Source: Psammoneis japonica (Eukaryota). Taken from it: a stretch of DNA of 64,000 nucleotides. Each line of letters starts with the position of its first letter. The stretch's first letter is position 1. Both the position numbers and the translations under genes were made by a program. Below the pieces are notes generated by a model that saw nothing but the letters and a program-made list of their open reading frames with translations, ran no database searches and was not told the DNA's origin. The stretch is taken from the NCBI GenBank assembly GCA_008632985.1, contig QPGO01000058.1:124001-188000 (forward strand), written 5' to 3'. Positions 1-50,915 of this stretch are shown in pieces.

Positions 1-830
1 ACGCATGGATGGCATCATTTTGTTTCCACCAGTTTCCCATGACAGATGCAGAAAATGATGCTCTGATTTCCAATGTCGACAATGCATCGTGTGGGTTACA
101 GAAAAGAAACAATGGAGTGATTTTTTTCAAAGAGAGAAGAAGAGCTGGTTTGTGCAGCAAACGCTGTCGTCTGTCATTGGACGCTGCAAACAATTGTTGG
201 CACCTTGTTTGGAACATTTTTTGCTTCCCTGTCAAAGCAACAGCAGCAATCACAACACCTTGCTCATTTTTGCATCATGGTGTCAATGCAGCTTGGCTGT
301 GTGATGCAGCACGTGGTGTGCTTTGTTGCGGGAGAGTGCGTGAAACCAAAAGTGCAACGGACGGGAGCTCCAAACCATCGGCAATCGGATCTGGAACCAG
401 CTCGTCAAGCTCGTTCCAAATCCATGCTCAAATGGATCGGAGCGGCTGTCCTTCATTGCATCTGCACGTCATCCGCACAGCAGCTGATTTCACCACCAGT
501 GGACACTCTAACTGGCCAACCACCTGACACCAAAATCGGTCAACAGGCATGTCACAAGAGAGCCCAAGTTGGACTCACATGGGTCATTGTCCCACAATTG
601 TTGCACCACTGAATCTCTCATCCCCCAACAGTGAGACGACTTGAACAAGACAGAGAAGAGACTGCAGACTTCGCAGCTGTTCTGGGGTGCAATCTTTTTC
701 GAGGAGGAGCGCTCATCTCATGAAGAAGCAAGAGAGATTGGAAGATGAAGAGTTTTCAGCAGTTGCCCCGTGATCATCCATGACTCAAAAGCGGTCACTG
801 TGTTCCCGTTCCTCCATCCAAAAGCAATCT
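1..830. mobile_element. TpA-depleted decayed repeat block A (truncated by window start; family unidentified)
   Basis: Hand count: 2 TA against about 20 CG in nt 1-600, compared with 19 TA in 1081-1680 of the neighbouring gene. ORFs are Cys/His-rich and Tyr-free. TA reappears at about 835. Confidence 0.65.
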
Positions 831-1083
831 TGCTGTAGAGTTGTTGTAGTTGTGTACGTTTGTCGTTTGGATTTTCGTGTTGGGTCTCGATCATCCATCA
901 CTCGCGCAAAGGTGACATCAGCAAAACGTCAAAACCAAATTTGACAAAATCAAAAAATTGAAAAATCGAAAAATGCCGCCGACGCGCGCCGACGCCAAAA
1001 CAATAACGCCTTCATTTTTTTTTCACGACGCAATAGTAAACGTTGTGGCGAGCAATACCCTTTTCCCTTCTCTGTTGGCCACC

Positions 1084-2665
1084 ATGGAGAAGTTTCTTAT
1101 TGCACTGGCCTTGACGGGTGTCGTGGATGCTATTTCCTACATGGTGGTTGCGCCAAGCATTGTCTTTTATGTGCTACAAGTCGGCGGCACCAAGGAGCAG
1201 TACGGCCTTGTTTTGAGTGCCTTTTCCTTTGCCTCCTTTTGTGCCAAGCCTTTTTTGGGAGCCTTTTCCGACAATATCGGCTTTCGATTTCCGTATATAT
1301 CGAGTCTCGCCATTTCCTGTACAGGAGGATTCTTGTATTTGATTGCGTCGCGGTTTGAGAGCGTCCGATTGATTCTCGCCGGACGCATCTTGGGAGGTGT
1401 CGGTGCCGCCAATTCGGCGCTGGCGTACGCGTACATTTCCAAAATGGTTCCCAATGAAAAGCAGACACGCATCAACTCGTTGTTGAGTATGGTGCGAATC
1501 TTTGGAATGGCGGCGGGGCCCGGAATGAATATCTTTTTGGCAAAGATTGACACTGACATTTTTGGGAGCTTTCATTTGGATAGTCTCAACTCGGTGGGAT
1601 TGGTTCTCATGCTGTCGAATCTGCTCGCAATCACTTGTATTTTCTTTTTGTTGGAAGAACCACCGTCCAACAATGGTACAAGTGACAGTGACAATGACGA
1701 CAAGGACGTTGTGGGCACGCTTGAAAAGGACGACAAGTTTGCCGTCTTGAAGGCGGTGCTTACCGCTGGGATTTTGGTCCCCATGCTGGCCATTTTTACG
1801 TTCAATGCGAACTTCCAATTGTACGTACTTGATGATGTGATTGCTTTGTTTATATCGTGTTTCTCACACGCATATGCTCACGGCCTTGTGTGTTGTTTGT
1901 AGAATTGAAACCGGTTTTGCTCCCGCCGCAAACCACGCTCTTGGTTGGGGCCCAATTCAAACTTCTGCGGTCCTTGGATCCATATCCATTATTATTTGCT
2001 TCAACATGTTTCTTGTCTATCAACTGTCTGCACGCAACGTCCGTGATGAGCAATTGGCCGTGATTGGATTGGTCGTATCCATTGTGGGCTACACCCTCAT
2101 GTACACGTGTTGGAAGGTGGGCGTCCCCGCCTGGCTCTTTTGTTTACCCATCGTCATGGGAGCATCGTCCTTTCCCTTTTTGGGAGCACCGACACGATCC
2201 GTCTTTACCAAATACGTCGATGCGAGTCCGTGTTTGGAAAATTACCAAGGGACCATGCAAGCCGTCTTGAGCATGGGTGCAAGTGTCGCGGGCTTTGTGA
2301 CGCCGGGGTTTGTAGCCTATTACGTCTTGAGACATGGGGAACAAGTCGATGCGAGTGCGGACCACCGAGAATTGACACCGTGGGCTCTGCTTGCTCCCGC
2401 TCTTTCGTTGATAACCTTGTTGGGATACCTGTATATCATTTGGCAACAAAAAAGAAATAAAGACGAAACGGCATTGCCATCTTCTCCACACGAAGCAAGC
2501 AGTCTTTTGGTGGACGACACGTTTGAGATTGTAGATGTGCCACGGAAATTCTGTCCCAGAACGGAACGATACCGTCGTCAGTCGGCATGTCTCATGGGCT
2601 TGGCACAAGTCGATTTCCAACACGAACACATCAAACAAGAACGTCGTAAAACCGTAATGTTTTAA
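1084..2665 (+). CDS. Major facilitator superfamily transporter (MFSD8-like), 2 exons: 1084-1820, 1903-2665
   Basis: Many hydrophobic TM segments and MFS-like motifs (GAFSDNIGFR, LAGRILGGVG). Intron 1821-1902 (GTACGT...TTGTAG) joins ORFs 958..1902 and 1841..2665 in frame (NFQL-IETG). Confidence 0.9.
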
Positions 2666-2765
2666 TAATAAAACAACAACACGCAAGCTAAACATACGAT
2701 TAAAATAGAAACTCCCAATTCTACGTTTCCATCTCTCGTCACACACAGTGCTCTTTTCTCGTTTC

Positions 2766-4055
2766 CTATTTTGACGTGGCCGTCGCGGCTCGTTTGCGTG
2801 CCTCTTGAATCTTGGCAAAGGAATAAAGAAATCCACCACAAAGACTAATCACAATAAAGAACCACGTTTCTTGGGTAATGATATTGTCAAACAAGACATA
2901 TCCCAAAAAGGTAACGGGCACCTTGTTGAGCGATCCAACAATGGCATACGTGGTGGGTCCCGTCGCTTGGACGCAATTGAGACTGGCAAAGTTCAAAAAG
3001 AACCCGACAAAGCCGGCCCACATGTTTTTCAAAAAGTAATCCATCGTGTGGAGCTCGGGTGTTTTGAAAAAGACGTGGACTTGTCCCATCATGAATGCCA
3101 CGGGCAAGAGAAAGACCGTGCACAAGACATTGTTGTAAAAGACCATTCCGAATTTGGATAGCTTGACATTCTTGGTGGCAAACTTTAGGTACAAAATGTA
3201 CCCCGCCGTGGACAGGCAGTTCATGGCCATCCAGAAAATGCCAGAGTAGGAAATGTAAATATCGTTCCACGCCGCCGCGACGGCTCCACTGAGCATGATA
3301 CCAAACGCCACCATGATGAGGTTATCCACCTTGGTTCCAAAGCAATAAAAGTCTCCGGCCGTGACTACGATATTCGTAATGTTTTTGAAAATAGTCACCA
3401 TGGGCACCGAGTTGTACTGGAGACTGGCCATGCCGGTAAAGAGCATACCGCAAAACAGGATATTGACGGGAGCCCAAAGACGAGCGGTCTGCCAGTTAAA
3501 GTTGGGGTACGTGACCCACGACATTTTTTTGCAAATCTCCACGCAAATCACAGCCACAATGGCCTGAAACACCACGAGCAAAATGTTCAAATCGCCCTCG
3601 ATAAAGTGATTGTATCTGAGAAACAAAAAGAAGAGAGAGGCATAGAATCAGTGTATCAGAAACGACTTTTGCTCAATAACGTTCAAACTAGAGTGATAAC
3701 GCTGACTTTTTACGCTTCCAACGCACTACGGTACACCGTGTTACGCAATCTCAACACGCTCAAAAACACACTAAACACACACACAGAAATTCACTTCTTA
3801 CCCCGACGCCAAACTCTTGTTGGTAAGAATCATGGACACACTACAGAAACTGTACATGATACAAGACCTCAAAGCGTGTTTGTTTTGCTTTTCCAACGAG
3901 GCTCTCGTGTTTTTTTCATCTCCGTTTTCGGTTCCGTTGGCCGTGTTGGAAGAAGAATCGTTCGAATCATGACTGTTATTCTTCTCCACCAACGGAGCTT
4001 GCATTTCCAAATCGGAATCCTTGCGTTCCAAGGCTGGTTTCAAAACAGACGCCAT
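2766..4055 (-). CDS. Nucleotide-sugar (GDP-mannose) transporter, VRG4/GONST-like, 2 exons: 4055-3802, 3615-2766
   Basis: Motifs YSFCSVSMILTNK, PMVTIFKN, GMVFYNN and TTYAIVGSLNK. The GTAAG...CAG intron 3801-3616 restores the frame (LASG-YNH). Confidence 0.88.
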
Positions 4056-9060: not shown

Positions 9061-11304
<2,244 letters not shown>

Positions 11305-11599
11305 TCACACCAAAACTAAGCACGATGTGTGTGAGCGTGTGCGTTGTTGATGGCGTTGTTCGGTTCATGGCATGATGTTTCACACACGTGGAATCAGTAC
11401 CAAATGTAACGTACACTACGCACGTACAAGTACGACGCATACCGCGTCTGCACGACGTCCGGTATTGGAGCGAGTGGTCGACGTCATCGTGTCAGATTGT
11501 TTAACGCCGAGAACATCAACATGACGTCAATTGTGTCTCTCTTTTTATTTTTCGCGAAATCGCATCGCGCGGACTTCCCTCCGACACCCAATGGCAACT

Positions 11600-16378: not shown

Positions 16379-16633
16379 CAGGACAAATTGAGCTTTGGTT
16401 CAGCACTGGTTCAGCAAAAATCAATTGCCCTTTGGATGCTGGTTCAGCAAAAAATGTCTTGGTTCAGCACTTTGTTACTTATGGTTTTTGAATTATTGTA
16501 ATTCTATTCTTTTGTTGTTAGAGATAATATAATCCATCTGATAGATCTGAGCGATGCGACGAGTAGACGAGCAGCCGCGAGCCTGTGATTGAGCAAAACA
16601 CAAAACACGCACTTGCCGCAAAAAGCAGGAACA

Positions 16634-36500: not shown

Positions 36501-37330
36501 TCAACCAGCCAATCCCCCCCAATTGTCAAAAGGCAGATCAAGCCAAGGGTGCTGACAATCAAGGCAGAAATGTTGCTTTCGTGCAATGGCACACCTCCTG
36601 GCAGGAGGCCAGTCCACACCAACTCTTTGCCAAGAAGTTTGGGGGTGGCAACAAAGTTGGCAGGTGCCAGTCATGGGGCTGACAAAATGTTTTTTGCCAC
36701 ACTTGATCTTGTGACATTGCTTCGTCACCAAATTTTGATGGTCAGCAACAGTCTTCAAGAAGACCAGTCCAGTCAAGGCAGTTGTGACACCCGTTCAGGT
36801 GAGGAAGCTGCCTTTCACAGCAAATGTGGGGCTGTGCAATGCAAATGGCATGAGCAAGGCCATCATCACATGCAGAATGCTGCAAGAGGCAGTGAGTGGC
36901 AAGACAGGCAAGGTCTGCTTGGCGTCAAAGTTCTTGGTCTGGTCTCCTGTTTGAGGGACACCAGCACCCCAAAGCAAGAGGAAAAGTGTGAGGTGCAGAC
37001 CAAAAACAATCATGATTTGCATCAGCCAAACTTTGAGAGGTTCTGTCCATTAGAGTGGCTTGAGAATGGAGGTGCCAAATGCAAGAGCCAATGACAGTGC
37101 CGCTGCTGGCACTGAAGATCCATGTCCCACAGAAAAGCAGCAGGCATTGTGGATCAAAGTCAAAGGAATAGCTGTCAACAAAGCAGCTGCCATGACAACC
37201 AACAAGGCATTCCAGTCAGTTCCTGAGGCCCCAGAGTTGCTTTCAAGTTCTCCAAAAGGCTGTCCAACAAGCTTGTCGAGGCCCCTGGCAGCACTTGTGT
37301 CAGATGTGAGGGTTTTGTCTGTCACAAAAT
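36501..37330 (-). pseudogene. Decayed DUF1295 / steroid 5-alpha-reductase-family membrane protein gene
   Basis: ORFs 37050..37352, 36795..37022 and 36501..36776 share one frame: AIPLTLIHNACCFSVGHG, FGLHLTLFLL, GLVFLKTVADHQ, TGTCQLCCHP. These correspond to YxFSVGYG, YGLRL..FL, LExxADxQK and GxYxxxRHPNY. Confidence 0.65.
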
Positions 37331-39383
37331 AAGAGGAAGAGATGAGAATCACACTTGGGTTGATTTGTGTTGATTCACAAAAAACATGGTTGAAACCGCA
37401 AAATCCTCAACACCACCACTCTGCTCACAACTCTTCTCATCGAACGTCCAAATCACCATGCGACCACTTCTTGTTCAAGGAAGCACTTTCTTCCTCCTCT
37501 TTCACAGCTTGATGCTCTGCTGTTGCCGGTGCTGCATGTGAGTGCTGCACCCACATGACATTTGATTGTCAGTGTCCTGGGATTTGTGTGTCTCATGGCA
37601 GTCGTGCAGACAAAACCCAAGAATGTGACCTTGAACAGGCAAACCCTGGTGTCCGCAAAAGAAGAACATGGCATGTCTTTGCCCATTTTCATGGCTTTTT
37701 CTGTCATTGCAATGCTTGTGTGGGTTTCATCCAACCTCTGTTCATTGTCAACAAAAGAACTTCTGAACTGGGGGCCAGCTCAGATTGCATCTTTTGCTTG
37801 TGAGAAGGGCTTTGGATTTCTCTGTTCTTTTTCTTCTTCCATCCAATCTGACACATCCAATGTGGACTGATCCTCATCACAGGTTGCACATTGGTGTCAA
37901 ATCTCAGCCTTTGCCATGTGTGAACAATGCTGTTGCAATCATGGAAAAGGGATGACCACAGCACACATGCCACACATCATGTGCACACACCTCAACTCCC
38001 TCTCTCTCTTGCACCTCCACCCGGGGCATGCAACATGAGCAGAAGTTGAGCAACAGAGTTGATTGTCAATGAATTGATCATCTGTTGATGATGTGATGAA
38101 GAGGTGTGTGTTTCACCATGCTCACCCTGAAGACTCCTCTCTCCTCTCTTGACTGCTGAGCAAAACTCTGGAATCCCTGCCAGCATGTGTCAATGACATC
38201 TGTTTCCTGTGCTGCATCCTTTTCATCAGCACATTTGGAGATGGCAGTGTGGCAGGAATGTGCAACAATTGGCCAAGTTCAGTGCCACCATCAAGTGCTG
38301 ATGCCATGCTGAAATGGCTGGCAACAGCGCAAGTTCCAAGTGTGCAGCAAACTGTTGAGCCTTGCCCAAGAGTGCTTGACTTAAGAGTGGTGGCAGTTTG
38401 ACCACAGGAGCTCTGGCTGCTTCTTCAATGACCTTTGTGAGTTGAGTGAGTGAGGTTCTTGTCTCCCCAGAGCAAGTGTTGAGCAAGTGAGCTCTGTGTC
38501 AAGCAAAGTGGAAAAAAGCAGTCATTTGTGCACAAGCAGATGACTGCAACAGTGCACTGCACCAACTTTCCCCAGTTTCTGCATCACCGCAATCAACAGC
38601 ATCTTTGCAAAAGCCCCACAGCTCCTGCCACTGCTGAGACCAGACAAGAAGAAAGCACTGCATTGACAACTGTCACCCACACTGGAAAAAATTGCCATTT
38701 CTTCCATTGCCCTGCATGCCAGACACATGGAAAAATGACAAAATGCTCCATCAAAAGCAGCCAGCAAATGAAGGAGAGATGCAGCCAGCCCTCAGCCAGG
38801 CACACTTGTTTTGTTTTGGCCCTTTTCCCTGATGCTTTCTGTGCTGCAATTCCCCATTTTTGCTTGAACGCACCAACAACCAACAACCACAGGCCACTCG
38901 AGGTGGCAGTGCAACTGCTGCTGCTGTGGCTGAAGAGAGCCACCACCATGACCCACAGAGGGCAAGGAGAGAGTTGATTGTGCCACTCTTTTTTTGCCAA
39001 ATCAATCACATTTTTCATGAAACTCTGGGTTGCCTTTTACAAAGCCTTGGCACCCTCTGTTGCTGAAAGCCTTTTGCCTCCAATTCAGAAGAAGAAGGGA
39101 AAAATCCCTCTTCTGGTGTGCAAATGGAGGCAAGTTGCATCTTGTCAAGATTTGTGCCATCCAAGCAGAGCTTCAAATCATCAAGAAAGGCTTGGATGGA
39201 AGCTTTGTCATTTTCAGTTGATGCATTTTCCCCAACCTGCATGACTCCACTCACCAAGGCTGGCAGTGTTGTGTGCAGAGCTGCGTCATTTCAAAATCAG
39301 GCGCTGGTTGAAAAATGAAGAAATCTGCTGACAAGGACAAGCTGGCGGTGTCTTGAATCAATGCAGAAATTGTGAACCCCCCC

Positions 39384-39410
39384 CCACACACACACACACA
39401 CACACACACA
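39384..39410. repeat. (CA)n microsatellite preceded by a C run
   Basis: cccccccccacacacacacacacacacacacaca. Confidence 0.9.
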
Positions 39411-42400
39411 TCTTTGGATGTTTTCACAGAAACTCCCAACCCTTTGGCACCACACAACTGTCGGAAAGGTGCCAGATGCTTCCTTTGCCACCACAAAGGA
39501 AGTCTTGCACTTGATTTCCAGGAGAGGAGCAACTGGGCTGCTGTCAGAATCAGCAAGGTTCAACTCAATGCTTGGAGCATCTCCTGCCATTGTTGCCACA
39601 GAATTGAGGGCCAGAAAGCTCCACTTGATGAAAAGCTTGGGATGTCACTTGGTGACCAAGAATGAAGCCTGTTTCAGTGCATGTTGCACAAAGTGATGGG
39701 AAAGTTGTGGGGAATCCAGTCACTTGGAAAAGAAGATGGGCCAGAGCTGGGCTCAGCTGTTGCAGTGCTCAAGGGATGATGTGATGGAGAGCCAGTCAGC
39801 AGGGGGGCAACACAGGCCACCGTTGGCAGTGCTGGAGGGAACTGCTTTGAACTTTGTGGGTCAAGGGCTGCTTCTTGTCAATGCTGCTGAGGGTGCCAGG
39901 CTTCACAAAAAGCTGGGCAGGCCACTCCACATGACAATCCAGACAGGACTTGTGTTGAATTTTGTTGTGTCAGAGTTGTCCAGTTCAGATCAACCCACTC
40001 TTCCCTTGAGTTGAAAACTTCATTGCACACTGAACTCCTCCTTCTTCCATGTCAATCAAAATGTTCTGCAGGAGAAGTCATGTTGCCCAAAGTGTCAATG
40101 AAGAGGCCAATGAAAGTGACAGATGAGGGTGGCAGAATGTCCAGCCCACAAGCACCAAACCTGTGCAAGTGCAGTGCAGTCAATTCCTTTGGGGTTGTTG
40201 GCCATGTCCAATCAAAGCAGTGGGCCAGCAGAAATGAAAGGAGGTTGAGATCTGAGCAAGACAACTCTCCCCAAGGCCACATTGTTGCTGAAGCAAGATG
40301 GCAAACTCACAGCTGCTGTGGAACAACAGTGTTTGGTGCCAGCAAGCAAAAGGGGCATTGGGGACATTCATCACAGAATGTTGACCACACTGAGAGGAGC
40401 AGTTTCTGTTGTCCCACTTGTCAATGACTGCAGCACAGGGCACCACATTTTAAACTTCCTGGCAGACACCTGTGACAAAGGCACTTGTGCTCTCTCACGT
40501 GCATCAGCAATTGCAGTGCATGCACAACAGGCACATCTCTTTCACCACCAATTTCATTTGAAACAATGCTCATGGCCAGCCAGCAAGGGCTGCTGTGTGG
40601 CTTTCTCTCATGCACTCCATTGTCGCTGCTTGTGCCCACTCCTTTGTCCCAACTTTTTGGATGTTTTTTTGAGAAGGAATGCATCTTCTAGAAGGCCCCA
40701 CCCAAGGAGACCATTGATTGGGTCATTTGCCAGATGTGTTGAACAAACAGCTCCAGACAAGCCAATGTCCATTGCAAGCTCAACAGTGGCGTCATTGTCG
40801 ACACTTTCAGCTCTGCTCTTGAGGATCTCAACCCACTTTGCAGACTGAACAAGGCCATCAGCAATGGAGACACATCTCCATCTCTTTGTGAGCTTTCTTG
40901 GATTTGCCTCAGGAGTTTGCCACAGACTGGCTCAGCTTTGAATCATCAAAACCATGTCTGCGGTCTCCTGCAGAGGCTGTGATTGATCAATGTGCTTGCA
41001 TGTGGCCTGCCCAAATTCTTCAGGGGGAACGGAGTTCAGCTCTCATTGCAGGAGCCACCAGATTCAACATGCCTTTGCAGGAATGAGTCTTTGTTGTCTG
41101 TTCTCTTTTGTTGATGCCCCCACAAACTGGGAGCTGCTTTTCACCAAATTCAATGAGCACAAGGCATGTGGCCTGCAGGGAACATGTCACAGCCACCCCG
41201 TGCACTCCTTTTCTGCTGGCATCCATTGGTTCATCCAGCTTCTTTTCCAGCAGCTCTTTGAAGAAAATCATTCACCCCAATGCCAGAGCCCTCAGGAGAT
41301 GACCAATCATGTCATCAACAAGGTCCATGGAACATGTGGCTCCAGAAGAGCCAATGTTCATGGCAAGTGCAGCACCACAGTCATCATCAATGTTTCCAAC
41401 ACTGTTCTCAAGAACCTCGCTCCACTTCATTGATTGAACAAGCAGGCTGAGACACACAATGATGTCTCCAGTTATGCTGGGGCTGTTCCTTGCTCACTTG
41501 GACTCACTCTGAGATTTTCTTGTGCACCTGTGCAGCTTCAAGTCACCAAACACTTTTCCATGGTGTTGCTTCAGCCAATGCAGTGATTCAGTCAACACAA
41601 TTGCATGTTGCCTGGCCAAAGTCTTTGACAGGGAAGAAGCCACATGTGTTGTTTTTGTCATGGCAGGAAACCCTGGAAATGCCACATGGAAGTTTCTTTG
41701 GTTTGGTTGTGCCATGATTGCTTTTGACATCTTGACAAATTGGGTGAGTTCTCTTGCCAATCTTGTCAAAACCAAGCTTGACAGCATCTCTGGAATGCCA
41801 AATGGCTGCCTCATGCATGCCACCAACACTTTCTCCCAAGGCTTTGTTTGGCCTGCTGCTTGTTGGCATTTGTCAAGAGGAAAACCACCATCCACAAGGC
41901 CAGAGCCCAGACTTGTTCCAGACTTGGGTGCGCTCACGCGCGAAAAAATGACCCTTTTTGCATGAACGCGCGGTCCACACTTGCGGCACCATTTTCGACA
42001 GTAAAAACATGACAATTTTCAAATGTGCTGTATGGGCACACACAGAAAGGTCTTGTGCGTGTGCCCATGTGTGCGAAACTGTGGATGGACTCAGTCATCA
42101 GTCGCTAAATTGCACCGTAAGTTGAGAGCTCGGTTTTCGATGAGCGATTTGTGCATGCCTTGATGCATTTGGAGATTTGTTGTTCTTACACACAAATGAA
42201 GTCGTTAACACAGCATAATTGATCTTTTGCTAGAATGCGCGAATGTGATTTACACTCAACGGATCGAATGAAGCATTCGTTGATTGACAAGTTTGGGACG
42301 ATGTGAGAAGAAGTGCAGCTCAGCCCACGCAATGGCGTCGACTTGGACCATTTTTCACTGTTTGAAAGGCACAAACGATTGATGCACTTGAACAAGTCAA

Positions 42401-43913
42401 ATGTGTTGAAGAAATGTACAGCAATGGAAAAGAAATGGTCCTCAGAGGCAAATTGTCAGTGAATTGAGGCTCAATTGTTGTTGCTGACAGATTTGGCATT
42501 GTTGTGCCACGCTGCAGCCTTCAACAAGCATTTTCACTGTTGTTGTTGATGACACAGACTACATCAAATGCGGAGGTCCTGGTCATGACATTCAATTTTC
42601 CATGAGGCTGAAAAAAGTGGGCCATCATGGTCACTGAAAGCCATGGCCGGTTTGGCTGTTTGTTTGTTCGAGTTTATTCTGTTTGTTTTGCTTGTGAGCC
42701 ATTGATGTGATCAATTTTAATGAGGTGTGCTCGGTGTTGGACAAAGCATAAAAAATTTATTTTTTCTGTGAAAAGGGGCATGTGCATGCCACCTGAGTCT
42801 GGAACAAGTCCCCAGGAGCCCACATTGATTGAAGGAGGGGAGACTGGCACAAAAAACAACTTTGCTGCAACAACCAAGGACACACAAAAACAATGTGGGT
42901 GTGAGTCAGGACAGATGGCTGCATGTGAGACAGACAAAAAACCCACTGTGTGTGTGGGTGGCTTGCTGAATTTTGTCGCCACCCTCTGCCATCAGTGCCC
43001 TGGTGCACAACAACGGCCAAAAACAAGCAACCAGTGTCTCCATGATTGCCAAAGCTGTTTTTCTTGCCACCTCTTCTTTGCTGTCCTTCTCGTCCCCTTT
43101 TTGTGGAGCCAGACTTGAAGGAGACAAAAGTGCGCCATGATTTGAGGGGTGCTCTCTCCCATCCAGAAAGTGGGGTTGCAAGCTGAACATCACCTGCTCT
43201 GGTTTTGGCTCCAAGGAAATGCAGCCTTGGCAGCACCATTTGAGAATGGCAAAAGACAGGGGCTGTTGGTGAGACAGCTGCAGCAAATCCCGTCATGTTT
43301 TGAGCACTCTCTTTTGTGTCTCTGTGTGTGGGGGGGGTGCCTCAATTGCACTGGCGCGGAAAGTTTTGCGTGCACGTGAGCCAGCTCACAAAACAACAAC
43401 GTTGCTTCAGCACTGCACAGTGCAGCACAACAAATGGTTTGGCAATGACCACAGGGCACCTTCCACAGACAACTCCCATCCCAACCAGTGAAGAACATCG
43501 AGAACATCGCGTTGTGTTCCTGTGCGTGCATCGACTCACTCTGTGGGAAAAAGAGACGAGATCTTCATTTTACTGTTCAGGATCAAAAAAATAGCCATGC
43601 CCTTCTTTTCTTTCTGTCATTGATGCGAACATCTATCCACGATTGATTATCTTAAAAATGAACGTTTCTATATTGGAATAATTGGAATAAATAATACATA
43701 CAGAAAAGTAGGATGAAATAAAATTTTTGAGTACGATTCGAAATTTTGAAATATTTCGAGTTGCAAAAAGTGGCAAAAGGTAAACACAACAAATTGATTG
43801 CCGAAAAGGCATCAAGAACTAACAGCAAACACCCCCCGTTGCCTGTTACAGTACTGCACGATACTCTACTGCGAGCTACTACAGTAGAGAGGCTTTCAGC
43901 ACCTATAACAACG

Positions 43914-45383
43914 ATGGCGGCAGTACGAAGTCATTTTTTCTGTTTCCTCTTTTCAGCCTTTTCGTTATGTATCACCTGTGTACAAGCCCAATGCAAGGCC
44001 GATAGTGAAGGCGATGGCAACTTTATCTATAGCTGCATGTTTCCCTTTGTCTATAAGGATGTTGAGTACAGCAGTTGCACCATGACAGAATGGTACACCC
44101 CGTGGTGTCTACTCGACTTAAACACCACTGATGCTTCAGATCACTGGGGTGAATGCGAACTCTCTTTAGCCTGCCTTGGCCAAGACGAACCAACAGACCC
44201 ACCCCAAGTGGAGCCAACATACCGCCCAGGACTCTTGAGTGGTTCCGAGGTTGGTTTGATTTTGTCACAAGGACTCACGGCACGAATTATTGCCAAGAGT
44301 GGGGATCCTGTCCAGTATCACGACGGTGGCCAGTCCTCGCTTGATTTTCATGGACGTCCAGACTTTGGAGCCACTTTTGAAGACAAATCGCAAGAAAATG
44401 AAGATGGGTGGATTTATGTCATCAATTCTGAAATGAAGGAAAGGGAAGAGGGTGGAGTCGGAGCCATTACATTCGACAAAGAAGGCAATGTTGTGAATTA
44501 TCAAAACTTGCTCTCTGGCACAACTGCGAATTGTGGTGGAGGGCGAACGCCGTGGGAAACTTGGGCTTCATTAGAAGAGACCAGTACTGGCGAGGCAGGT
44601 TACCGTGGACAAATCTATCAAGTGGATCCATCCGGTGGGAGGAATCCTGAGAAGATGACCATGGGGTTGGACGGAGAACGGTTTGAATCGTTCACCTATG
44701 ATGATCGTGATCAAGACCAACCTCGCTTCTTTGCAACAGTCGATCATACCAGTGGTCCTTTAAGGCGATGGACACCCAAAGCTCCGAATTGGACCGATCC
44801 ATGGTCTATTCTTCATGGTGAAGGTGAGTTGGATTTCCTGTATTTGTACCCTGAAGATGCGAGCGATACCTCTGGAGGGACATTTGAGTGGGTTCCAGAG
44901 CGGTCAGAAGGAAAGCAGAATGCACGCCTACATTTCCCAGAGACAGAAGCGATCGATCGCGTGGAAAACATGCTGTATTTTGTATCAAAGAGACGAAAAG
45001 TTCTCTACATGCTTGACCTTGACGCAATGACATTCACGAGACAGTCGACGGTGCACGGCATGTTTGAGGGCTCAGCTGATCAGATTCAGCGGATTCTGGC
45101 TGATGACGATGGCGATCAAATTCTGTACATGACCGAAGAACGCATCGGTGGCACCAATGGAGGGATTCACGGTCGAAACAGCCAAGGGCACTTTTTCACG
45201 ATCCTTGAAGGCAAAAGAGAGCTGTACAGGTCGGAAACGACCGCCTTGGCTTTTAGTCCTAATGGCTACCACTTGTACTTTGCATTTCAAGAAACTGGTC
45301 ACGTGTTTGATGTGACTAGGGAAGACGGGCTTCCTTTCCACGGTCGGACGCTGGATGTGAACTACCACAACGTCGATTTGTAA
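43914..45383 (+). CDS. phoX: Secreted PhoX-family (DUF839) alkaline phosphatase with N-terminal fibronectin type II domain
   Basis: Signal peptide; FN2 signature CMFPFVYKDVEYSSCT...PWC...WGEC; PhoX motifs GWIYVINSE, GGVGAITFD, NCGGGRTPW...EE, and SETTALAFSP. Confidence 0.85.
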   Translation: MAAVRSHFFCFLFSAFSLCITCVQAQCKADSEGDGNFIYSCMFPFVYKDVEYSSCTMTEWYTPWCLLDLNTTDASDHWGECELSLACLGQDEPTDPPQVEPTYRPGLLSGSEVGLILSQGLTARIIAKSGDPVQYHDGGQSSLDFHGRPDFGATFEDKSQENEDGWIYVINSEMKEREEGGVGAITFDKEGNVVNYQNLLSGTTANCGGGRTPWETWASLEETSTGEAGYRGQIYQVDPSGGRNPEKMTMGLDGERFESFTYDDRDQDQPRFFATVDHTSGPLRRWTPKAPNWTDPWSILHGEGELDFLYLYPEDASDTSGGTFEWVPERSEGKQNARLHFPETEAIDRVENMLYFVSKRRKVLYMLDLDAMTFTRQSTVHGMFEGSADQIQRILADDDGDQILYMTEERIGGTNGGIHGRNSQGHFFTILEGKRELYRSETTALAFSPNGYHLYFAFQETGHVFDVTREDGLPFHGRTLDVNYHNVDL

Positions 45384-45661
45384 GATCCAGTCTACTAAGT
45401 AGTTATCTTAGTTGTTCCTGTGCACGTTTTGTACTGAATAAAGAGTCGCACAGTATGAGAGCCCCCTTTTTCGATTTCTAGAGCTGAAATGCTGCAGTGA
45501 TTGCTCGCAACCCTGAAAACCTTATCAGTTCCATTCTCCTTCCTCCTGTGCTATTTCAGCGCCAAACGGAATTATGCTGGTCAAGTGAGAAACAACGAAA
45601 AAGCATAATTGTCTGCTGGGTCCAGTCTCGGCTATCGTACAATGTTCCCGTACCGTCGTAA

Positions 45662-46423
45662 TTAAGAGGTACTGTCGCAAAACCCTAAGGGGTGTAGAGT
45701 GTCTTGACACGAGAGATATGCCAGACATTGTCCATCCATCCAAATGATCCAGGGAAGAATACCAGGAAGATACACAACACTGTCAAAAACCCTCGTCATA
45801 AAGGTCGATTCCCACAGAGGCAACCCGCGGTACTCAAACGCAGGGAGAAGGAAATCAATCATACCCACAGAGGCGGCAAACACCGAGAGACGCTTCATGT
45901 TGCGCTTGTTGGTGCTTCCTCGTCCACCGACCAATCGAACCACCAAACGCAAATCACTCCAAAAAGAGCAACGGATGCGGCGGGAAAGTAATAAGAAAAC
46001 ACGATGATTGGTAAAACTGAGGTGTTTCCGGCCAGTTGAAGAGTCAAGCACACCATAGAGGCTGCCAGGAGTGCAATTAATCCCAGAACAAGACCGCGCC
46101 AAATCACAGTAAGACTCCGTTCTCCTTCTTTCACAAATAAAACTACTATAACTGCCACTCCAATCGATACATAACAGACACCAGCAAAGAGTAGGACTTG
46201 CCAAAAGGCCCACTCCAGCCATGATGACGATGAATCTCCTAGCCTGACGAAATTTCTCGCTAACCAAAGAGAACTAGAAACGACTTGAAAAGAGAGGTAT
46301 CCCGAGAATGACTTGGCAATAAACCACAATGACAACGTAGACGACGGCATGTTATTTGAAGAATTGTAATGCCACGAGGCAAGCCGAACCCCACACGATG
46401 TATCCGACGCTGGAGAGATCCAT
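45662..46423 (-). CDS. Hypothetical multi-pass membrane protein, frameshifted
   Basis: Hydrophobic ORF 45895..46350 continues into the 3' part of ORF 45662..46267 through a frame jump near 45900. The upstream ATG at 46423 needs another jump. Composition is normal. Confidence 0.45.
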
Positions 46424-47639
46424 GGTGCTATACTACGCAGCGTATTGCCAATTCAGGAGTTCGGTTTTGACGGACGTAGGCAGTTTGTTGCCATGCTATC
46501 TGCATTGACGTATCTGAACGTTTTGGTTTCAGTTTGACTCATGGTTAACATTCTCTGACAGGGTCGATGGGGCCGCATCGATCAGTCGATCATCATCTGG
46601 AGCCATTAGGCGGCCCTGTATCTCCCAATCGAAAAACTTGAGAATCTCCTGATGGAGGGACGGACCCTTCAGTCCAACTTGAAGTAGTCTAAGTAAGTGT
46701 GCGAGTCAGACTCCTCATTTTGCTCCTCTGGAGTTCTTGGTGCACAAGACATTTCACATTTTTGCACATTCACTGCTCTAGAGAGAAGACCACGGTCTTC
46801 TCAACCACAACAATCAACAACATCTGCAAGCACCTTGGTGGGAAGTCCTCTTTCCTCAGAGGGCCAAAAGCTTGGGGGATTGTGACTGGCATCGAGAGAA
46901 GAGAGCTTGGCCCTTGGCACATGAGCCAAGATCAAGATGGCAGGTTCAATGGAGCAAAGTGTGTCAGGACAAAGGAAAAGATGAAGGTCTTGTTCTTTGC
47001 ATGGCAGAAGAGAAAGGGGGTGAAAAGAACAAGGAAGGGAGGTTTTTGTGATGATGTCGCCATTGAAAATGCAAGGCACCGCGGCTGCCACCTGCTCCTG
47101 ACAAAGCCATCAAGAAGAGACACAAAGATGACCACCAATGCACACATCTGCTGCAACACTGCCATTCTGTGAGCAGTTTGCCAAAGAGGCACAATGCCAC
47201 AATGATGAAAGCTCAGCCGTGCAGGGCCGTTGCAGCAAGAGAACCTTTTTGAAGATTGTCCTCCTTCTGTGTTGTCTTCAAACTTTGCCACTGTGGTTGA
47301 ACACAACACCAGCAGCGGCACTTGTTGACAACAATGTGCGCAAGTGTCAACTCATTTAAAAATGTGGAAAAAAGGAGACATTGTGGCTTTGTTGTTCTGC
47401 TGTGTCTTCATTCACCAAGGGCAAAGAGAGGAACAACAGGCAGCAAAAAACAACAATGCTGCTGGCAAGCAAGAAGTTGCTTGCAGCAAAGCAGATGTGC
47501 AGTCTCTGTCATTGGATGACACTCACAGAGTCTCAAATGTTGGCTGCCATGGGCATCCACAGGTGCTCAACAGCCAGTTGGAACAGAGACAGCTGGCCAG
47601 CTAACTTGTGTGGCTGAGAAGCCGATTTGCTTTCTCTTT

Positions 47640-47920
47640 TTCAAATTTCAAAACAACCACAAGACTTCAATTCCATTGTTCATTGAACTCATTCAAAACT
47701 GCCATTCATTTGAAGAAATGGGGCACATGTTTTGCTCTCTGTTGGCTCTTGCTGTTTGCAACCTGGCGGGTTGTCAGGTGACCATCATGGGTGGCACAGA
47801 TCACACAGGTGATGAAGGACACATGGACACCTCCAGATGTGATGTGGGGTTGCAAGCATCAGGAGGACTTCTCATGCATGCATGTCTTGGTGCTGCCAGA
47901 TGTACTTGCAGGGGTGTCCA
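47640..47920 (+). pseudogene. Possible PIF/Harbinger transposase N-terminal remnant
   Basis: KFQNNHKTSIPLFIELIQNC...CDVG...LLMHACLGAARCTCRG weakly resembles FRxRFRxxYxLFxEL...LLILxxLRYxxRG. Confidence 0.3.
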
Positions 47921-48844
47921 TCCATGTTGGCATGACTCTCCTTCTTCTCTCCTTTTGTGGAAAGCAGTTTTCGAAAATGACAAAGCAGCACCACTGGCTG
48001 ATGTTGATCCTGAGTTGACTGAAGTGTTGCACCATGAGAATGACCTTCACCAGATCCAGCAAGGCTTGACCCCAGCAACACAACAGCAACCTGGAGCAGT
48101 TTTGTGATGCCGGTGAAAACAATGACAGCAGCAATGTTGCCCCCCCATGTCTCGGACAATGTCAGCAGTGCCCAGGTGATGGTGTTTTGGAGCGAGTCAT
48201 GAGCTTGAACAGAGCAGGTTGCCTGGCGGCTGCTTGCATTTAGAATGTTCAATGTGCAAACATTTTCGCACCATGCAGTGGATCGTAATCATCATCCTTG
48301 CCACCACTGTCATTTTCTGATTCCTTTGCTTCTTTTGGCCACCGTTGCTCTTTTTCTTCAGGATCCGGTTTCCCCCGAAGCATCATAATTTTTTGATTGC
48401 TCTGTCTCACACCACGGGATTTGTGGCCCCCTCCATGATGGTCTGTTAGAATGCATTGTTCCAAACATGTCTCATGCAAAAAAAAAACAGGGTGGCCACA
48501 TCTTTTCAAATTTTTGCATCTTCAGTCTCTATGATCTGCACCACCACACTGCCTGCTTTCCCACATCAGTGCCACTTTTAGGATGGAGGCGATTCTTCAT
48601 TGCAAATCTCTTCATCCGCAACAGCACCAAATTCTGCCACATTCTTTTGCTTCTTCGTTGACATCAAATGTGCATTCTGAGAGTCTTGCTGGTGACTTTT
48701 GTCAGTGTCTCATCTCATCGCATGCAGACAATTGCACATTCAACACTGAAAACAGGCTTGGCACAGACGATGCGCCATGGTTTGAGGAGTGCATGAGCAG
48801 TCTCTACAGCATGAAAGGGAAAGTCTTGTTTTTAGTTCCATGCT

Positions 48845-49930
48845 TCACAAAGTTTGAATGATGAAACCATGTGAAAGTGTGTGCCAGGCAGCAATGCTCC
48901 AACTTTGTCCTTGAAATCCGGTGGAAAAGCCTCCTGGTTGTTGATTTGTTTGAGCCCAATCCTCGTTGCACTGACGAATGCGAGCTGGACTTGGCGGGAT
49001 TTGCGGGAGCAACTCAGCATGGTCTGCACAGTCTTGGGGTGTCCAAACAGATTCAATCCACGCAATGAGTCCATGCTTGCCGAGCAAACTGGATGCCTTC
49101 TCAGGGAACCTCTTTTTAATCATTCTTGACAGCAGTTCTCTGCTCCAGGCCAACCCTTTCCAAACAGGCTCTGTGGCAGATCCACCGCTTGTTGCTGATG
49201 GGTGAGCCAATGTCTTTGCACCATTGTTCACTGTGGACATGTGTGTTGCCCATTTTGTGTTTTTGCTGAGAACAATGGTGCAGAAACCCTTGTTCTTGGA
49301 AGCCATGAAGAGTTTCCTAACAAAGAGTTCATTCATTTTGTTCTGCAAGTCAAAGGAATCCAGAATGAGCAGGTGCGAAGGCTGGCAATTGGGAATCGAG
49401 GGATCCGGACAGAGTGCAGTGATTGAGGAAAATGTCCATTCCTTGCAACCTTTGGTTCCCAAACATTGTGACATGAATCTGAAATGGTTGGGTCCTGGTG
49501 TGCCTGTGATCACATGCCCTTGCGTTGCAGGAATTTCTTCCCCATTTTGTCCCTGAAACATCGGCAGAGCATTTTCGAGAAAGTCCCGAGCGCTGTGTGT
49601 CTTCCCTTGATTGGACAGAGCATGCAAAATGCAAGTTCTTCCCATGGTCAAAGGGAGGGAATCTGGTTGAATTGGCATGTACAATCGCTTGAGGGCTTCT
49701 GAGATAGGAGAGCAGACCACCTGATTCTTTTCAACAAGTCTGGATCTGTGTCGAGTGAGACTGTTCGTTTCGAGGCACACCCTTCGAACTTTGTTAAGAG
49801 TGTTGACACAGTTTCATCAAGAGCTGCTTTGAATGCCTCCTTTGTTGATGAACCAGCCTCTTGCGCTGCGAGAGACAGCTCGAATGACAACGCGATCTCT
49901 TCCAAATCTGAGGGCATGGTGATTGCAATG
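48845..49930 (-). pseudogene. Decayed P-loop NTPase gene
   Basis: CILHALSNQGKTHSA is Walker A-like and HLLILDSF is Walker B-like. Only 1 Tyr in 311 aa. Frameshifted N-terminal part lies in ORF 49648..50010. Confidence 0.5.
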
Positions 49931-50915
49931 GGGTGTGGTGCATGGAATGTAGGATGGCAAGGAAGTGCTGAGCGGGTCACTTGTGGCATGCGGTTGAAAG
50001 GGTTCAGCAATCCAAATCACTGGAATGAGATGAAGAGATCTCAGATCGGTGATGGGTGATGGCGTTGTTGCAGAAAAATCTGTGAACTTTCCTGGGTTGC
50101 GCGCGCTGCCGCCCATGGACCAGATTGAAGATTGCGGTCATGTTTGCCAAGCCACTGCTGAAGGATAAGTTTGTCAAATTGCACAACAAGTGATGTCCTC
50201 ATGGCCTCTTCCTTGCTCAGTTGCATGCAAGTGACAGTGAAAGGAAAATCGAGAACCTCCTGATGGCGGGACAGACCCTCCAGTCTGCTGCAACTTGAAG
50301 CTGAGTGCCAAGCGATTCAGATCGCGTCGAACTGAAGATTGCGAGGCTCCTGCTGATCACCTCACACTTCCCTGCCTTCAGGTCTTCATTCTCTTTTACC
50401 ACAATCTGTAAACTAGAGGTTGCACTTTTTATTGCTCCTCTGTTCTTTCACATCCTTTTCTGCTGGCGGGTTCTCATCAATCTCAAATTTGCGAATCCAA
50501 AAATGGCGCGCGCCATTTCGAATCGATTTATTTACTATATATGTGCATGAATAAAAATAAATGATGAGATCCAACACTTATTCGTAGAATTCTACACACG
50601 CTGCTGGTACTCGACAGAAAGAAGCCTTGATCTCAGCCCTTCTGCTTGTTCTCGTATCTCTCGTCCCGCTGGTCGAACCACAATGAAAAAAAGCAACAAA
50701 AGACAAGAAAGAAGAACCTTTTCGTACAGTGTAAGTGTTGAAGCAATGGTTACAAAAGCACTCCAATTTTGTATAGAGAGTTTTTTTGTTCCTGTTATCC
50801 GTTATCCTTGTGCCGAGCAAACTCTGGTTCTTCTGCTACCTTCTTTTTCTCTTTGATCGTGTCAAATGCTCACTCTCTTGATTTCTTCTTTTGATTGTAG
50901 CGATTTGTTACCATA

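Follow-up and report, generated by a model that had tools for sequence, protein, structure and literature searches.

Sharply bounded blocks nearly free of TpA in the diatom Psammoneis japonica are consistent with two island-confined transition processes

Five sharply bounded blocks, in a window of 64,000 nt from the diatom Psammoneis japonica (contig QPGO01000058.1, positions 124,001 to 188,000), have lost nearly all of their TA dinucleotides and a good part of their CG, with a matching gain of TG and CA. Their composition and sharp borders, the mass balance between dinucleotides, the polarity and strand symmetry of the changes and their dependence on context are direct observations. The reading that we prefer, to which we give a probability of about 0.7, is that two transition processes have been at work, both of them restricted to these islands: a fast loss of TpA, by adenine deamination in silenced chromatin, and a slower decay of CpG. 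The whole of the evidence is a footprint in the sequence.

Results

Block limits were set from the positions of TA, and borders are sharp to within ~50-150 nt. Block 1 (1-836), truncated on its 5' side by the start of the window, holds 2 TA (observed/expected ratio, o/e, 0.04), with o/e of 0.55 for CG, 1.59 for TG and 1.70 for CA. Block 2 (11599-15676; 9 TA, o/e 0.03; CG o/e 0.25) is intergenic, being flanked by divergent genes for a kinase (9061-11304, minus strand) and a pseudouridine synthase (16589-17803, plus strand). Block 3 (19435-28055; 51 TA, o/e 0.09) shows a milder CpG loss (CG o/e 0.58), contains a transposase relic and is interrupted by a gap of 24 N at 27941-27964; 20 of its remaining TAs lie within TTAA. 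Block 4 (34222-43571; 33 TA, o/e 0.05), the largest, features the strongest CpG loss (CG o/e 0.22), and block 5 (46779-50397; 19 TA, o/e 0.08; CG o/e 0.34) includes a P-loop pseudogene. An earlier note, made from the sequence alone, had described five such blocks: the recomputed limits fall within about 150 nt of those it gave, and its hand counts of TA (2 in 1-600, 2 in 14041-14640 and 19 in 1081-1680) are exact.

Taken together, the blocks (26,480 nt) contain 114 TA, against 1,030 expected from the rate in the remaining 37,496 nt of the window (Poisson P 4e-291), which corresponds to an o/e of 0.06, compared to 0.56 elsewhere. The longest stretch without a single TA measures 1,413 nt (P about 4e-25 given the TA frequency outside). 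TG and CA are raised, from o/e of 1.21 and 1.18 outside to 1.73 and 1.68 inside, at an unchanged G+C of 48%, while genes between the blocks have normal TA, as the earlier note had maintained for both the richness in TG and CA and the untouched flanking genes. CpG, whose depletion that note had missed, amounts to 571 instances in the five blocks versus 1,403 expected (o/e 0.37, 0.22-0.58 by block).

Searches for recognizable content gave results in two blocks. No Pfam match was found for the ORFs of block 1, for block 2 or for six read-through frames of block 4; these three blocks, 14.3 kb together, contain no recognizable coding remnants, and an origin could be assigned to none of them. Viral genes were recognized in no block, searches for reverse transcriptase or integrase domains found none in any block, and self-blastn of the window detected no similarity among the five blocks. 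Blocks 3 and 5, set among ordinary genes on a nuclear chromosome of the diatom, are dead mobile or duplicated DNA. The replacement of Tyr by Cys or His in remnants of transposons and in gene copies, claimed earlier for the blocks at large, is confirmed for these two of the five.

In block 3, an open frame of 685 codons (19965-22022, plus strand) translates into N-terminal C2H2-like zinc fingers followed by a transposase core, with 157 homologues at E<=1e-3. It contains no Tyr, 5.3% Cys and 5.0% His, compared to homologue means of 2.8%, 2.3% and 3.3%, respectively. Searching with the homologues by tblastn outlined a Plavaka-like (CACTA-type) DNA transposase pseudogene (20952-22669, plus strand), which reads through a TGA at 22020-22022 and has a frameshift near 22200-22244; the Pfam Plavaka domain (PF18759) was found in the homologues P0144 (2.2e-9) and P0123 (8.3e-5, under the Pfam cut-off). 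Taking ancestral states from homologues at 21-38% identity, the five majority-Tyr columns read His in three cases, Cys in one and Gln in one, and never Tyr; of the 16 majority-Arg columns, 6 retain Arg and 5 have changed to His, Cys or Gln. Five metagenome loci that encode distantly related transposases have normal TA (o/e 0.42-0.59). Because of the lack of Tyr, the frameshift and the internal stop, the transposase is not under selection.

Block 5 contains a full-length pseudogene (48959-49917, minus strand) from an unnamed family of 320 residues, identified by tblastn and alignment and featuring Walker A- and B-like motifs. A single frameshift lies near 49735, and the stop codon has become TGG, extending the frame to 48848. 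Six homologues were found (E 1e-117 to 2e-94, 57-70% identity) and supplied the ancestral states, at 54-70% identity; a polarized substitution spectrum, of the kind that the earlier note had suggested for TE family copies, could thereby be obtained. The pseudogene retains the residue of 188 out of 242 conserved columns, and 54 are replaced: single-step changes from TA to TG or CA occur 11 times and the reverse never, those from CG to TG or CA 12 times and the reverse once, the rest being 19 transversions, 6 other transitions and 5 multi-step changes. On these small counts, the alignment establishes the TA>TG/CA direction in the pseudogene. Ordinary decay is mixed in, since the replaced columns include transversions, other transitions and multi-step changes; indeed, transversions removed 2 of the 7 conserved Tyr.

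The four dinucleotides involved, TA, CG, TG and CA, make up nearly the same share of all dinucleotides outside (24.1%) and inside (23.9%) the blocks, where TA and CG are down by 6.6 points and TG and CA up by 6.4. The rise equals the fall, and G+C stays put, because both processes yield the same products; about half of the TG/CA excess is contributed by CpG decay. A tally by 4-mer context gave a total gain of 1,696, against 1,751 predicted, with a moderate correlation (r 0.45) on the product side. The products are nearly balanced (2,833 TG, 2,806 CA) and do not cluster in runs of either kind within the blocks (z -1.5 to +0.9), and both Tyr>Cys and Tyr>His are found inside each of the two pseudogenes. 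The A to G transitions at TpA, on both strands, that the earlier note had postulated are borne out by this balance and by the 11 to 0 polarity.

Survival of TA depends on its neighbours. Among the 110 surviving TAs with context, block-edge ones being excluded, 29 lie in TTAA, compared to 58 of 1,459 outside (Fisher P 3.5e-14), while ATAT has no survivor, versus 73 expected. A multiplicative per-strand model fits survival well (deviance 11.5 on 12 df) and uniform survival poorly (deviance 120.4 on 15 df; LRT P 2e-23), the expectations being derived from the mostly coding flanks, as a proxy for the ancestral block sequence. The data fit an editing of T-A that acts on each strand independently and prefers 3' neighbours in the order T>C>G>>A, with TTAA nearly spared.

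For block 4, we could draw on Logan contigs assembled from the reads of one public run alone (X1), placed on the window at a likeness of at least 80%. Contigs at 32609-35700, 36095-39369 and 39419-41936 differ from the window at 3, 9 and 7 sites, that is, 19 differences in about 8.9 kb, mostly CG/TG/CA polymorphisms, and have a depth of 60-63, compared to 62.9 in the adjoining gene. The first of them (record 2) and a further one at 43293-44375 (record 5) cross the two block borders. X1 is probably the sample behind the assembly, and hence no biological replicate. Read support, one of the checks proposed earlier, was thus obtained for the block and for both gene junctions, and block 4 is mostly single copy.

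Two segments of block 4 are repeated. The first (35675-36121), recognized by self-blastn and contig depth, contains an internal duplication of 111 nt (35675-35785 and 36011-36121, 86% identical) and reaches a summed contig depth of about 25,000-30,000, versus about 62 for single copy. Other copies have TA where the window has CA, at 35823 (79% of depth) and 35866 (60%), or TG, at 35811 (11%) and 35883 (39%). The second (41840-43173), with a depth of 2,600-3,700 in X1 contigs, is less mutated, with 10 TA and a CG o/e of 0.82 at 42001-42500, and is therefore probably a later insertion. In addition, self-blastn and pairwise comparison identified a diverged direct copy (35140-35477, plus strand) of the sequence at 43421-43781, which straddles the right border of the block and is TA-free on the block side only. 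In one 79-nt pair (35401-35477 in the block, 43703-43781 outside), three TAs outside correspond to TG inside, and three CGs outside to CA or TG inside.

Discussion

The islands would represent dead mobile and duplicated DNA, including at least one DNA transposon relic, one pseudogene and short multicopy repeats. A first process, fast and near saturation, would turn TpA into TpG or CpA, on both strands equally and independently, at a rate set by whichever base follows the adenine on its 3' side (T > C > G >> A), leaving TTAA almost untouched. Its chemistry would be an enzymatic conversion of DNA adenine, in T-A context, to inosine, which is read as G. A second, slower one would turn CpG into TpG or CpA, as expected from deamination of 5-methylcytosine. 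The adenine deamination would take place in silenced, probably CpG-methylated chromatin, the target being defined by position rather than by sequence homology. As the earlier note had remarked, no candidate enzyme is visible within the 64-kb window.

Decay of 5-methylcytosine, known from methylated transposons, accounts for that half of the signal which consists of CG>TG/CA changes (12 versus 1 in block 5), and diatom transposable elements are reported to bear cytosine methylation (PMC9998398). Unlike what this decay can achieve, TA is removed, and in every block more completely than CG. The earlier note had used it as a contrast: the loss of TA is indeed beyond its reach, but CpG decay does act in the blocks.

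A precedent is found in the chlorarachniophyte Bigelowiella natans, where the main text of a 2026 preprint (Mettrop et al., bioRxiv 10.64898/2026.01.13.699255) describes how integrated viral DNA is hypermutated specifically at TpA. Of the 302 mutations recorded in mutation-accumulation lines, 231 lay within two viral inserts, all but one of these being A>G or T>C, each at TpA; the long-term footprint consists of clusters depleted in TpA and enriched in CpA and TpG, whose coding sequences are enriched in DDE-endonuclease and reverse-transcriptase domains (same preprint). The diatom process, sharing TpA>TpG and TpA>CpA on both strands, may by analogy be of the same kind. The host, however, is a stramenopile rather than a rhizarian; the loss of TA is near saturation (o/e 0.03-0.09), compared to a reported Rho of 0.45 in the NCLDV insert; and the affected tracts contain the relic of a DNA transposon and a pseudogene, with no recognized viral gene. 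CpG is co-depleted and G+C flat, whereas the preprint reports a rise in G+C and its main text does not deal with CpG; nor does that text contain the words "trinucleotide", "context", "flanking" or "TTAA", in contrast with the 3' neighbour rule and spared TTAA of the diatom. Direct measurement of such a process comes so far from this one unrelated alga, the diatom blocks being known by their footprint. The signature, which the earlier note believed undescribed, is therefore no longer so in general; for diatoms, a full-text literature search found no report of TpA-erasing hypermutation.

In duplex DNA, an A>G change after T and a T>C change before A are one and the same, and the context rule equally reads as a 5' neighbour preference of A>G>C>>T for thymine. 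The chemistry might hence start at the thymine of TpA: once modified within silenced DNA, as by oxidation to 5-hydroxymethyluracil through an enzyme of the TET/JBP type, it would be changed to C by mispairing or faulty repair, giving TpA>CpA on one strand and TpA>TpG on the other; in dinoflagellates, 5-hydroxymethyluracil is found preferentially at TpA. We consider this route unlikely: deamination of adenine to inosine yields the observed change in a single step, polynucleotide adenine deaminases prefer a 5' U or T, and we know of no high-yield pathway from modified T to C.

Fungal RIP, in Neurospora and others, also introduces dinucleotide-specific transitions into mobile DNA, with sharp limits and intact adjoining genes. 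RIP, however, carried out before meiosis by relatives of the RID/DIM-2 DNA methyltransferases, turns CpA into TpA, raising TA, lowering G+C and creating stop codons, while the diatom blocks lose TA and stop codons and keep their G+C. A mirror image of RIP, triggered by sensing of duplication or homology while the elements were multicopy, would suit the transposase relic, the two multicopy segments of block 4, with copies differing at TA/TG/CA sites, and the block 5 gene, a family member. It seems quite improbable, as most of block 4, unlike the duplicated substrates required by RIP, has no second copy at a likeness of at least 80% in X1, where its depth is about 60-63, although saturated conversion of TA and CG would by itself leave copies with a likeness above 90%. 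The blocks are, moreover, mutually dissimilar, and the copy straddling the block 4 border, TA-free on one side, suggests a positional limit. The "repeat-targeted" action proposed in the earlier note is not borne out by these results. The hypermutated NCLDV insert of B. natans, too, is reported as single copy (bioRxiv 10.64898/2026.01.13.699255).

Animal ADAR and APOBEC enzymes act on retroelement RNA or cDNA, strand-asymmetrically, APOBEC causing C>T/G>A in TC or CC context. They share with our case, where the deaminase is putative, a deaminase-driven hypermutation of mobile elements fixed in the genome. ADAR-like A-to-I editing of double-stranded retroelement transcripts, fixed by reverse transcription and reintegration, is very improbable here: the only element that could be identified belongs to the DNA transposons, searches of the blocks turned up neither reverse transcriptase nor integrase domains, and pseudogene and non-coding DNA are equally affected, up to sharp positional borders, single genes being mutated symmetrically on both strands. 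ADARs are, to our knowledge, limited to animals. In favour of such editing, ADAR prefers U upstream of the edited A (bioRxiv 10.64898/2026.01.13.699255).

That the blocks were born TA-poor, as foreign DNA, or are kept TA-free by selection is highly improbable. Blocks 1, 2 and 4 offer no homologue for a polarity test, but for blocks 3 and 5 this explanation is largely refuted, by the polarity in block 5 (11:0 and 12:1) and by conserved Tyr and a stop codon altered just as TA>TG/CA predicts; the transposase relatives have normal TA, the mass balance matches conversion, and a Tyr-less, frameshifted, internally stopped transposase is not a selected one.

An assembly or base-calling artefact, with 5-methylcytosine called as T and modified T as C, would give exactly these two changes in heavily modified DNA, and the N gap at 27941-27964 denotes an imperfect assembly there, but it is hardly credible, and ruled out for block 4 as a long-read error, because contigs of several kb built from X1 alone (k-mer depth about 60, such long and deep unitigs requiring accurate reads) reproduce the block and its gene junctions at single-copy depth, and because the codon changes are coherent in a pseudogene that also bears a frameshift and ordinary substitutions.

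Adenine deamination in silenced chromatin, the reading favoured here, would have a peculiar effect on genes. Changes from TA to TG or CA never create stop codons, and destroy TAA and TAG; genes would therefore be disabled by missense, with a spectrum of Tyr>Cys/His, Ile>Met/Thr and Leu>Ser/Pro, and unusually long open frames would remain.

Results

In bins of 500 nt, TA is found 0–10 times per bin (observed/expected, o/e, 0.00–0.28) in five stretches of the window, and 8–43 times (o/e 0.23–0.98) elsewhere. Delimited by the positions of the individual TAs, these stretches, hereafter blocks 1 to 5, span 1–836, 11599–15676, 19435–28055, 34222–43571 and 46779–50397; all five had been recognized in an earlier note, made from the sequence alone, with limits falling within about 150 nt of ours and with three hand counts of TA (2, 2 and 19) that are exact on recount. 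Taken together, the blocks contain 114 TAs in 26,480 nt, versus 1,030 expected at the rate of the other 37,496 nt (Poisson P = 4e-291): 916 of the roughly 1,030 expected TAs are missing, the o/e ratio is 0.06, and the longest TA-free run measures 1,413 nt. TG and CA are more abundant inside than outside the blocks (o/e 1.73 versus 1.21, and 1.68 versus 1.18, respectively). AT, with an o/e of 0.85 inside versus 0.93 outside, is spared, and AA and TT are likewise not depleted, indicating that A/T bases as such are not the target. Block borders are sharp, to about 50–150 nt, and lie a few hundred bases off the ends of ordinary genes. An assembly gap of 24 N is located at 27941–27964, inside block 3 and about 100 nt from its right border.

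A second depletion, unremarked in the earlier note, sets in at the same borders: CpG occurs 571 times in the blocks versus 1,403 expected, with o/e values of 0.22–0.58 in the single blocks. Pyrimidine-purine steps, all four taken together, account for 24.1% of dinucleotides outside the blocks and 23.9% within them, TA and CG together being down by 6.6 points and TG and CA up by 6.4. G+C content is 48.0–48.8% in the blocks versus about 47% outside, and is nearly constant because A:T>G:C changes at TA are offset by G:C>A:T changes at CG. TA loss is near complete in each block, while CG loss varies between blocks, which suggests that the process acting on TA is the faster or the longer-lasting one. 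CpG survival in the blocks also depends on the neighboring bases, being 0.63–0.65 in GCGC and CCGC/GCGG and 0.28–0.30 in ACGA/TCGT and ACGT; CpG decay is thus quicker at A/T-flanked sites.

The genes lying between blocks are ordinary eukaryotic ones, mostly intron-free, and encode an MFS transporter, a SNF1-type kinase, a pseudouridine synthase, a STAND ATPase, PhoX-like, isochorismatase and DOMON/cytochrome b561 proteins, and an XPG protein. Every named relative of the latter is from a diatom or from the sister group Triparma, the best match being 47% identical. In a quick single-gene tree with long branches, the window protein falls, with unnamed proteins, beside those of raphid pennate diatoms (Seminavis, Nitzschia, Cylindrotheca, Mayamaea and Epithemia), in a grouping with SH-aLRT support of 99%, which leaves out Chaetoceros and Triparma. 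Relatives and tree placement indicate that the window does not derive from Bigelowiella, the alga discussed below.

Support from reads was evaluated in three public sequencing runs, X1, X2 and X3, all from one sample; X1 probably represents the very sample behind the assembly, hence no independent isolate. Run X1 contains 84% of the sampled words of 34000–43999. Its Logan contigs, assembled from the reads of that run alone, cover block 4 in pieces of 2.5–3.3 kb at a k-mer depth of 60–63, the adjoining gene being at 62.9, and three of these pieces feature 3, 9 and 7 differences from the window. Both borders of the block are crossed, by record 2 (32609–35700) and record 5 (43293–44375). The reads of X1 thus reproduce block 4 and its two borders, a lack of such support being among the refutations named in the earlier note, and miscalling of modified bases in long reads is very unlikely, since contigs so long and deep need accurate reads. 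Differences between X1 and the assembly amount to 19 in about 8.9 kb of block 4 versus 2 in about 3.7 kb of flank; those in the block are mostly CG/TG/CA polymorphisms (7 listed sites, versus 1–2 of TA type), as would be expected if this DNA were still methylated but had run out of TA.

X1 depth shows that block 4, outside its two repeats, is today single copy at a likeness of at least 80%. The first repeat, at 35675–36121, contains an internal 111-nt duplication (86% identical) and reaches a summed depth of about 25,000–30,000, versus about 62 for single-copy DNA; a SINE- or MITE-like nature is possible. A tRNA T-arm look-alike near 35950 within it is unsupported, ARAGORN and Rfam searches of the window having returned no matches. 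The second is a middle-copy zone at 41840–43173, with a depth of 2,600–3,700. Within this zone, 42001–42760 shows this depth together with many joints, and 42001–42500 retains 10 TAs and a CG o/e of 0.82; this segment looks like a younger repeat insertion, mutated only in part, which makes it a good site to check whether the process is still at work. At 42174, the assembly and X1 disagree on the length of a CA microsatellite.

Comparison of the window with itself by blastn yielded three short pairs only, the blocks being mutually unrelated. A tblastn search with 93 ORFs from the flanks gave no match in the blocks; genes of this window have thus left no decayed copies there. A repeated motif family is suggested by the depth (1,300–2,100) and the many 'skip' joints seen in X1 at 31168–32501, a region covering the 3' end of the STAND AAA_16 ATPase gene and the sequence downstream of it. 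Several adjacent double changes between TG and CA (32445/6 and 32467/8) are found in this otherwise TA-normal region, as would arise from separate mutation of an ancestral TA or CG in different copies. In runs X2 and X3 most of the stretch examined is without cover. X2 (30 Mb of contigs, labelled 'DNA?') covers 30501–31722, 45410–46567 and 35780–36004, corresponding to parts of genes and to the high-copy repeat, and leaves the single-copy DNA of block 4 uncovered, as might be the case for a transcriptome. No RNA dataset was listed among the runs containing this sequence.

Recognizable content was found in two of the five blocks, a transposase relic in block 3 and a pseudogene in block 5. Block 3 features an open frame of 685 codons, the mean stop spacing in the blocks being about 37 codons. 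An exhaustive HMMER search with this frame detected 157 homologues (best E 4e-52), none of which emerged from a word-based search. Two out of ten tested homologues match the Pfam family Plavaka (PF18759), one of them above the Pfam cut-off, and the window's own frame has no Pfam match. The Plavaka-like relic spans 20952–22669 and is interrupted, according to tblastn, by one internal stop and one frameshift. Inverted repeats of block 3 are limited to pairs of 19–26 nt, 76–90% complementary, among which no credible element termini could be recognized. At 23146–23895 (forward strand), a frame of 249 codons weakly matches the WRKY19-type zinc finger (Zf_WRKY19, E 0.002, below cut-off), and may be a further remnant of a transposon-borne DNA-binding protein; it is the best result of the Pfam search on blocks 1–3 (93 ORFs of at least 75 codons), none of which exceeded the cut-off. 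The same search on blocks 4 and 5, translated in six frames with stops as X, returned no families, and no protein remnant was recognized by Pfam in blocks 1, 2 and 4.

The block 5 pseudogene (48959–49917, reverse strand) is a full-length copy, with one frameshift, of a member of an unnamed family of about 320 residues, for which six homologues, P0272–P0277, 57–70% identical, were collected. The family carries Walker A-like (APSNQGKT) and Walker B-like (LLILD) motifs. Pfam searches of the six homologues, a family profile run against PDB sequences and a scan of viral contigs all returned no matches, and the AlphaFold model from the 6-sequence alignment, with a mean pLDDT of 45, was too poor for a fold search.

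This pseudogene allows the changes to be polarized. In 242 columns all homologues, or all but one, agree; 188 are kept in the window and 54 replaced. Replacements were classified by the single nucleotide change joining a codon for the conserved residue to the window codon. Eleven are of the TA>TG/CA class and none of the reverse, 12 are CG>TG/CA versus one in the reverse direction, 6 are other transitions, 19 are transversions, and 5 need two or more changes. Conserved tyrosines have become Cys (2), His (2), Asp (1) and Asn (1), one being kept, and the stop codon reads TGG, so that the frame runs onward. In the block 3 frame there is no Tyr in 685 residues (homologue mean 2.8%), and Cys is roughly doubled. 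At five majority-Tyr columns the transposase reads His three times and Cys and Gln once each, while two control homologues retain Tyr at 2 of 5 and 3 of 6 such columns; at the 16 majority-Arg columns, 6 residues are kept and 5 have turned into His, Cys or Gln, the outcome predicted for CpG transitions.

Copies of the repeats point the same way. For the high-copy repeat, genome copies with TA account for 79% and 60% of depth at sites where the window has CA, and for 11% and 39% where it has TG; one site is opposite, with TA in the window and CA in other copies. In the pair formed by 35401–35477, in block 4, and 43703–43781, outside it, the block side shows TG for three TAs, and CA or TG for three CGs, of the outer copy. 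A metagenome scan with a 4-sequence alignment gave five loci with distant transposase relatives, and TA o/e at these loci is ordinary (0.42–0.59). For blocks 3 and 5 and the high-copy repeat, these sequence comparisons (polarity, Tyr columns and copies) exclude an ancestral TA-free composition, one of the findings by which, according to the earlier note, its reading would be refuted.

The two strands are equally affected, with 2,833 TG versus 2,806 CA in the blocks, and a runs test detected no strand-wise clustering of the two (z −1.5 to +0.9). One and the same gene shows Tyr>Cys, an A>G change on the sense strand, alongside Tyr>His, a T>C change; this symmetry argues against editing of the sense transcript.

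The choice of site depends on context. Of the 110 surviving TAs counted with context, block-edge TAs being left out, 29 lie in TTAA, versus 58 of 1,459 outside (Fisher P = 3.5e-14). When expected counts are derived from the flanks, which are mostly coding and stand in for the ancestor (the weak point of this step), survival is about 0.71 in TTAA and 0 of about 73 expected in ATAT; survival in all 16 contexts is fitted by a model with independent hits on the two strands, whose rate depends on the nucleotide following the adenine on its 3' side (deviance 11.5, 12 df), while uniform survival is rejected (deviance 120.4, 15 df; likelihood-ratio P = 2e-23). The estimated rates are 2.23 for T, 1.60 for C, 1.11 for G and 0.25 for A. 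Agreement of the model with the gains of the 32 NTGN/NCAN words is moderate (r = 0.45, P = 0.01), versus r = 0.14 for an even split.

Open frames of at least 200 codons number 17 in the blocks versus about 6 estimated by chance. Changes from TA to TG or CA make no stop codon and remove TAA and TAG, so that long open frames persist, and gene callers could annotate them as Tyr-less orphan genes.

Discussion

The feature seen in the blocks is real, strong and mutational in origin. Before 2026, to our knowledge, no cellular process was known to erase TpA specifically from DNA. Fungal RIP, to which the earlier note compared it, turns C into T at CpA, leaving excess TpA, AT-rich DNA and new stop codons; it depends on duplication and on a DNA methyltransferase of the RID type, and takes place premeiotically. 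The blocks are its mirror image, with a TA o/e of 0.06, a CA o/e of 1.68 and unchanged G+C, and most of block 4 is single copy today at a likeness of at least 80%, which need not have been so when it was mutated. The DNMT4 enzymes of diatoms are described in PMC9998398 as RID-related and of unknown function.

A process of the same kind has been reported by Mettrop et al. in the chlorarachniophyte Bigelowiella natans (bioRxiv 10.64898/2026.01.13.699255). As given in the main text of that preprint, two integrated viral regions received 231 of the 302 nuclear mutations of mutation-accumulation lines; a single one of the 231 was neither A>G nor T>C, and the others all lay at TpA, with the de novo rate of the tracts raised about 1000-fold. 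The genome contains 124 clusters of windows poor in TpA and rich in CpA and TpG, and 324 near TpA-free coding sequences, enriched for DDE-endonuclease and reverse-transcriptase domains; a hypermutated NCLDV insert is single copy, and an ADAT2-like adenine deaminase is proposed by the authors. The window resembles this system in that changes are A>G/T>C and polarized from A:T (11:0, with Tyr>His/Cys in two pseudogenes), that loss is limited to the TpA dinucleotide, and that it affects five discrete tracts among normal host genes, with mobile or dead content recognized in two. The net G+C shift of the B. natans tracts is, in contrast, absent from the window blocks, where CpG decay cancels what TA loss adds. 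The 'reverse RIP' of the earlier note is thus of a kind known from B. natans; for diatoms, in which the note was aware of no description, full-text literature searches found no report of a TpA-erasing footprint either. As far as these searches show, such a footprint is now known from two lineages, this being the later of them and the first among diatoms. The words CpG, diatom, trinucleotide, context and TTAA are absent from the main text of the preprint, and, judged by that text, the host lineage, a footprint close to saturation, its association with CpG decay and the neighbor rule sparing TTAA are new here, although its Table S2 may already hold context data.

As to the chemistry, the most parsimonious reading is that adenine is deaminated in the DNA itself; taken on its own, we tentatively place it at about 40%. 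A reaction starting at the thymine of TpA, rather than at the adenine, seems unlikely to us. The CpG component resembles decay of 5-methylcytosine (CG>TG/CA 12 versus 1, CG o/e 0.22–0.58; methylation inferred); as the whole cause it is rejected, since it cannot remove TA and accounts for only half of the signal. ADAR-type RNA editing followed by retrotransposition conflicts with the near equality of TG and CA, with the two Tyr changes in one gene and with a putative DNA transposon as the affected element, no reverse transcriptase having been found in the blocks by Pfam searches; ADAR and APOBEC models alike fail on strand symmetry and element type.

The process would be directed by position, the target being a silenced, methylated chromatin domain, rather than by homology sensing. 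A diverged copy at 43421–43781, which straddles the right border of block 4, is TA-free on the block side only, and most of that block is single copy; from this one short alignment and one run, we cautiously prefer a positional target. A highly speculative extension is a chromatin-guided DNA deaminase of the ADAT2/TadA kind with dual specificity, which would edit A in T-A and (methyl)C in C-G of silenced domains, driving both to TG/CA; shared by diatoms and chlorarachniophytes, it would represent an ancestral mutational immune system of SAR, working without new stops.

The context model suggests a substrate rule, by which the base after T-A is preferred in the order T > C > G >> A and TTAA escapes, precise enough for in vitro deaminase tests, and a natural enzyme editing A in double-stranded genomic DNA within a defined context would be of interest to base-editing research. 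The joint loss of TpA and CpG suggests that targeted adenine editing may be tied to domains of DNA methylation, which can be put to the test. In diatom genomics, a TA o/e near zero would be a simple marker of silenced foreign or mobile DNA, and TpA erasure would explain long 'orphan' open frames without Tyr. A near-saturated footprint in a diatom would mean that TpA erasure is not peculiar to one alga, and the process may be widespread among the SAR lineages dominant in marine primary production.
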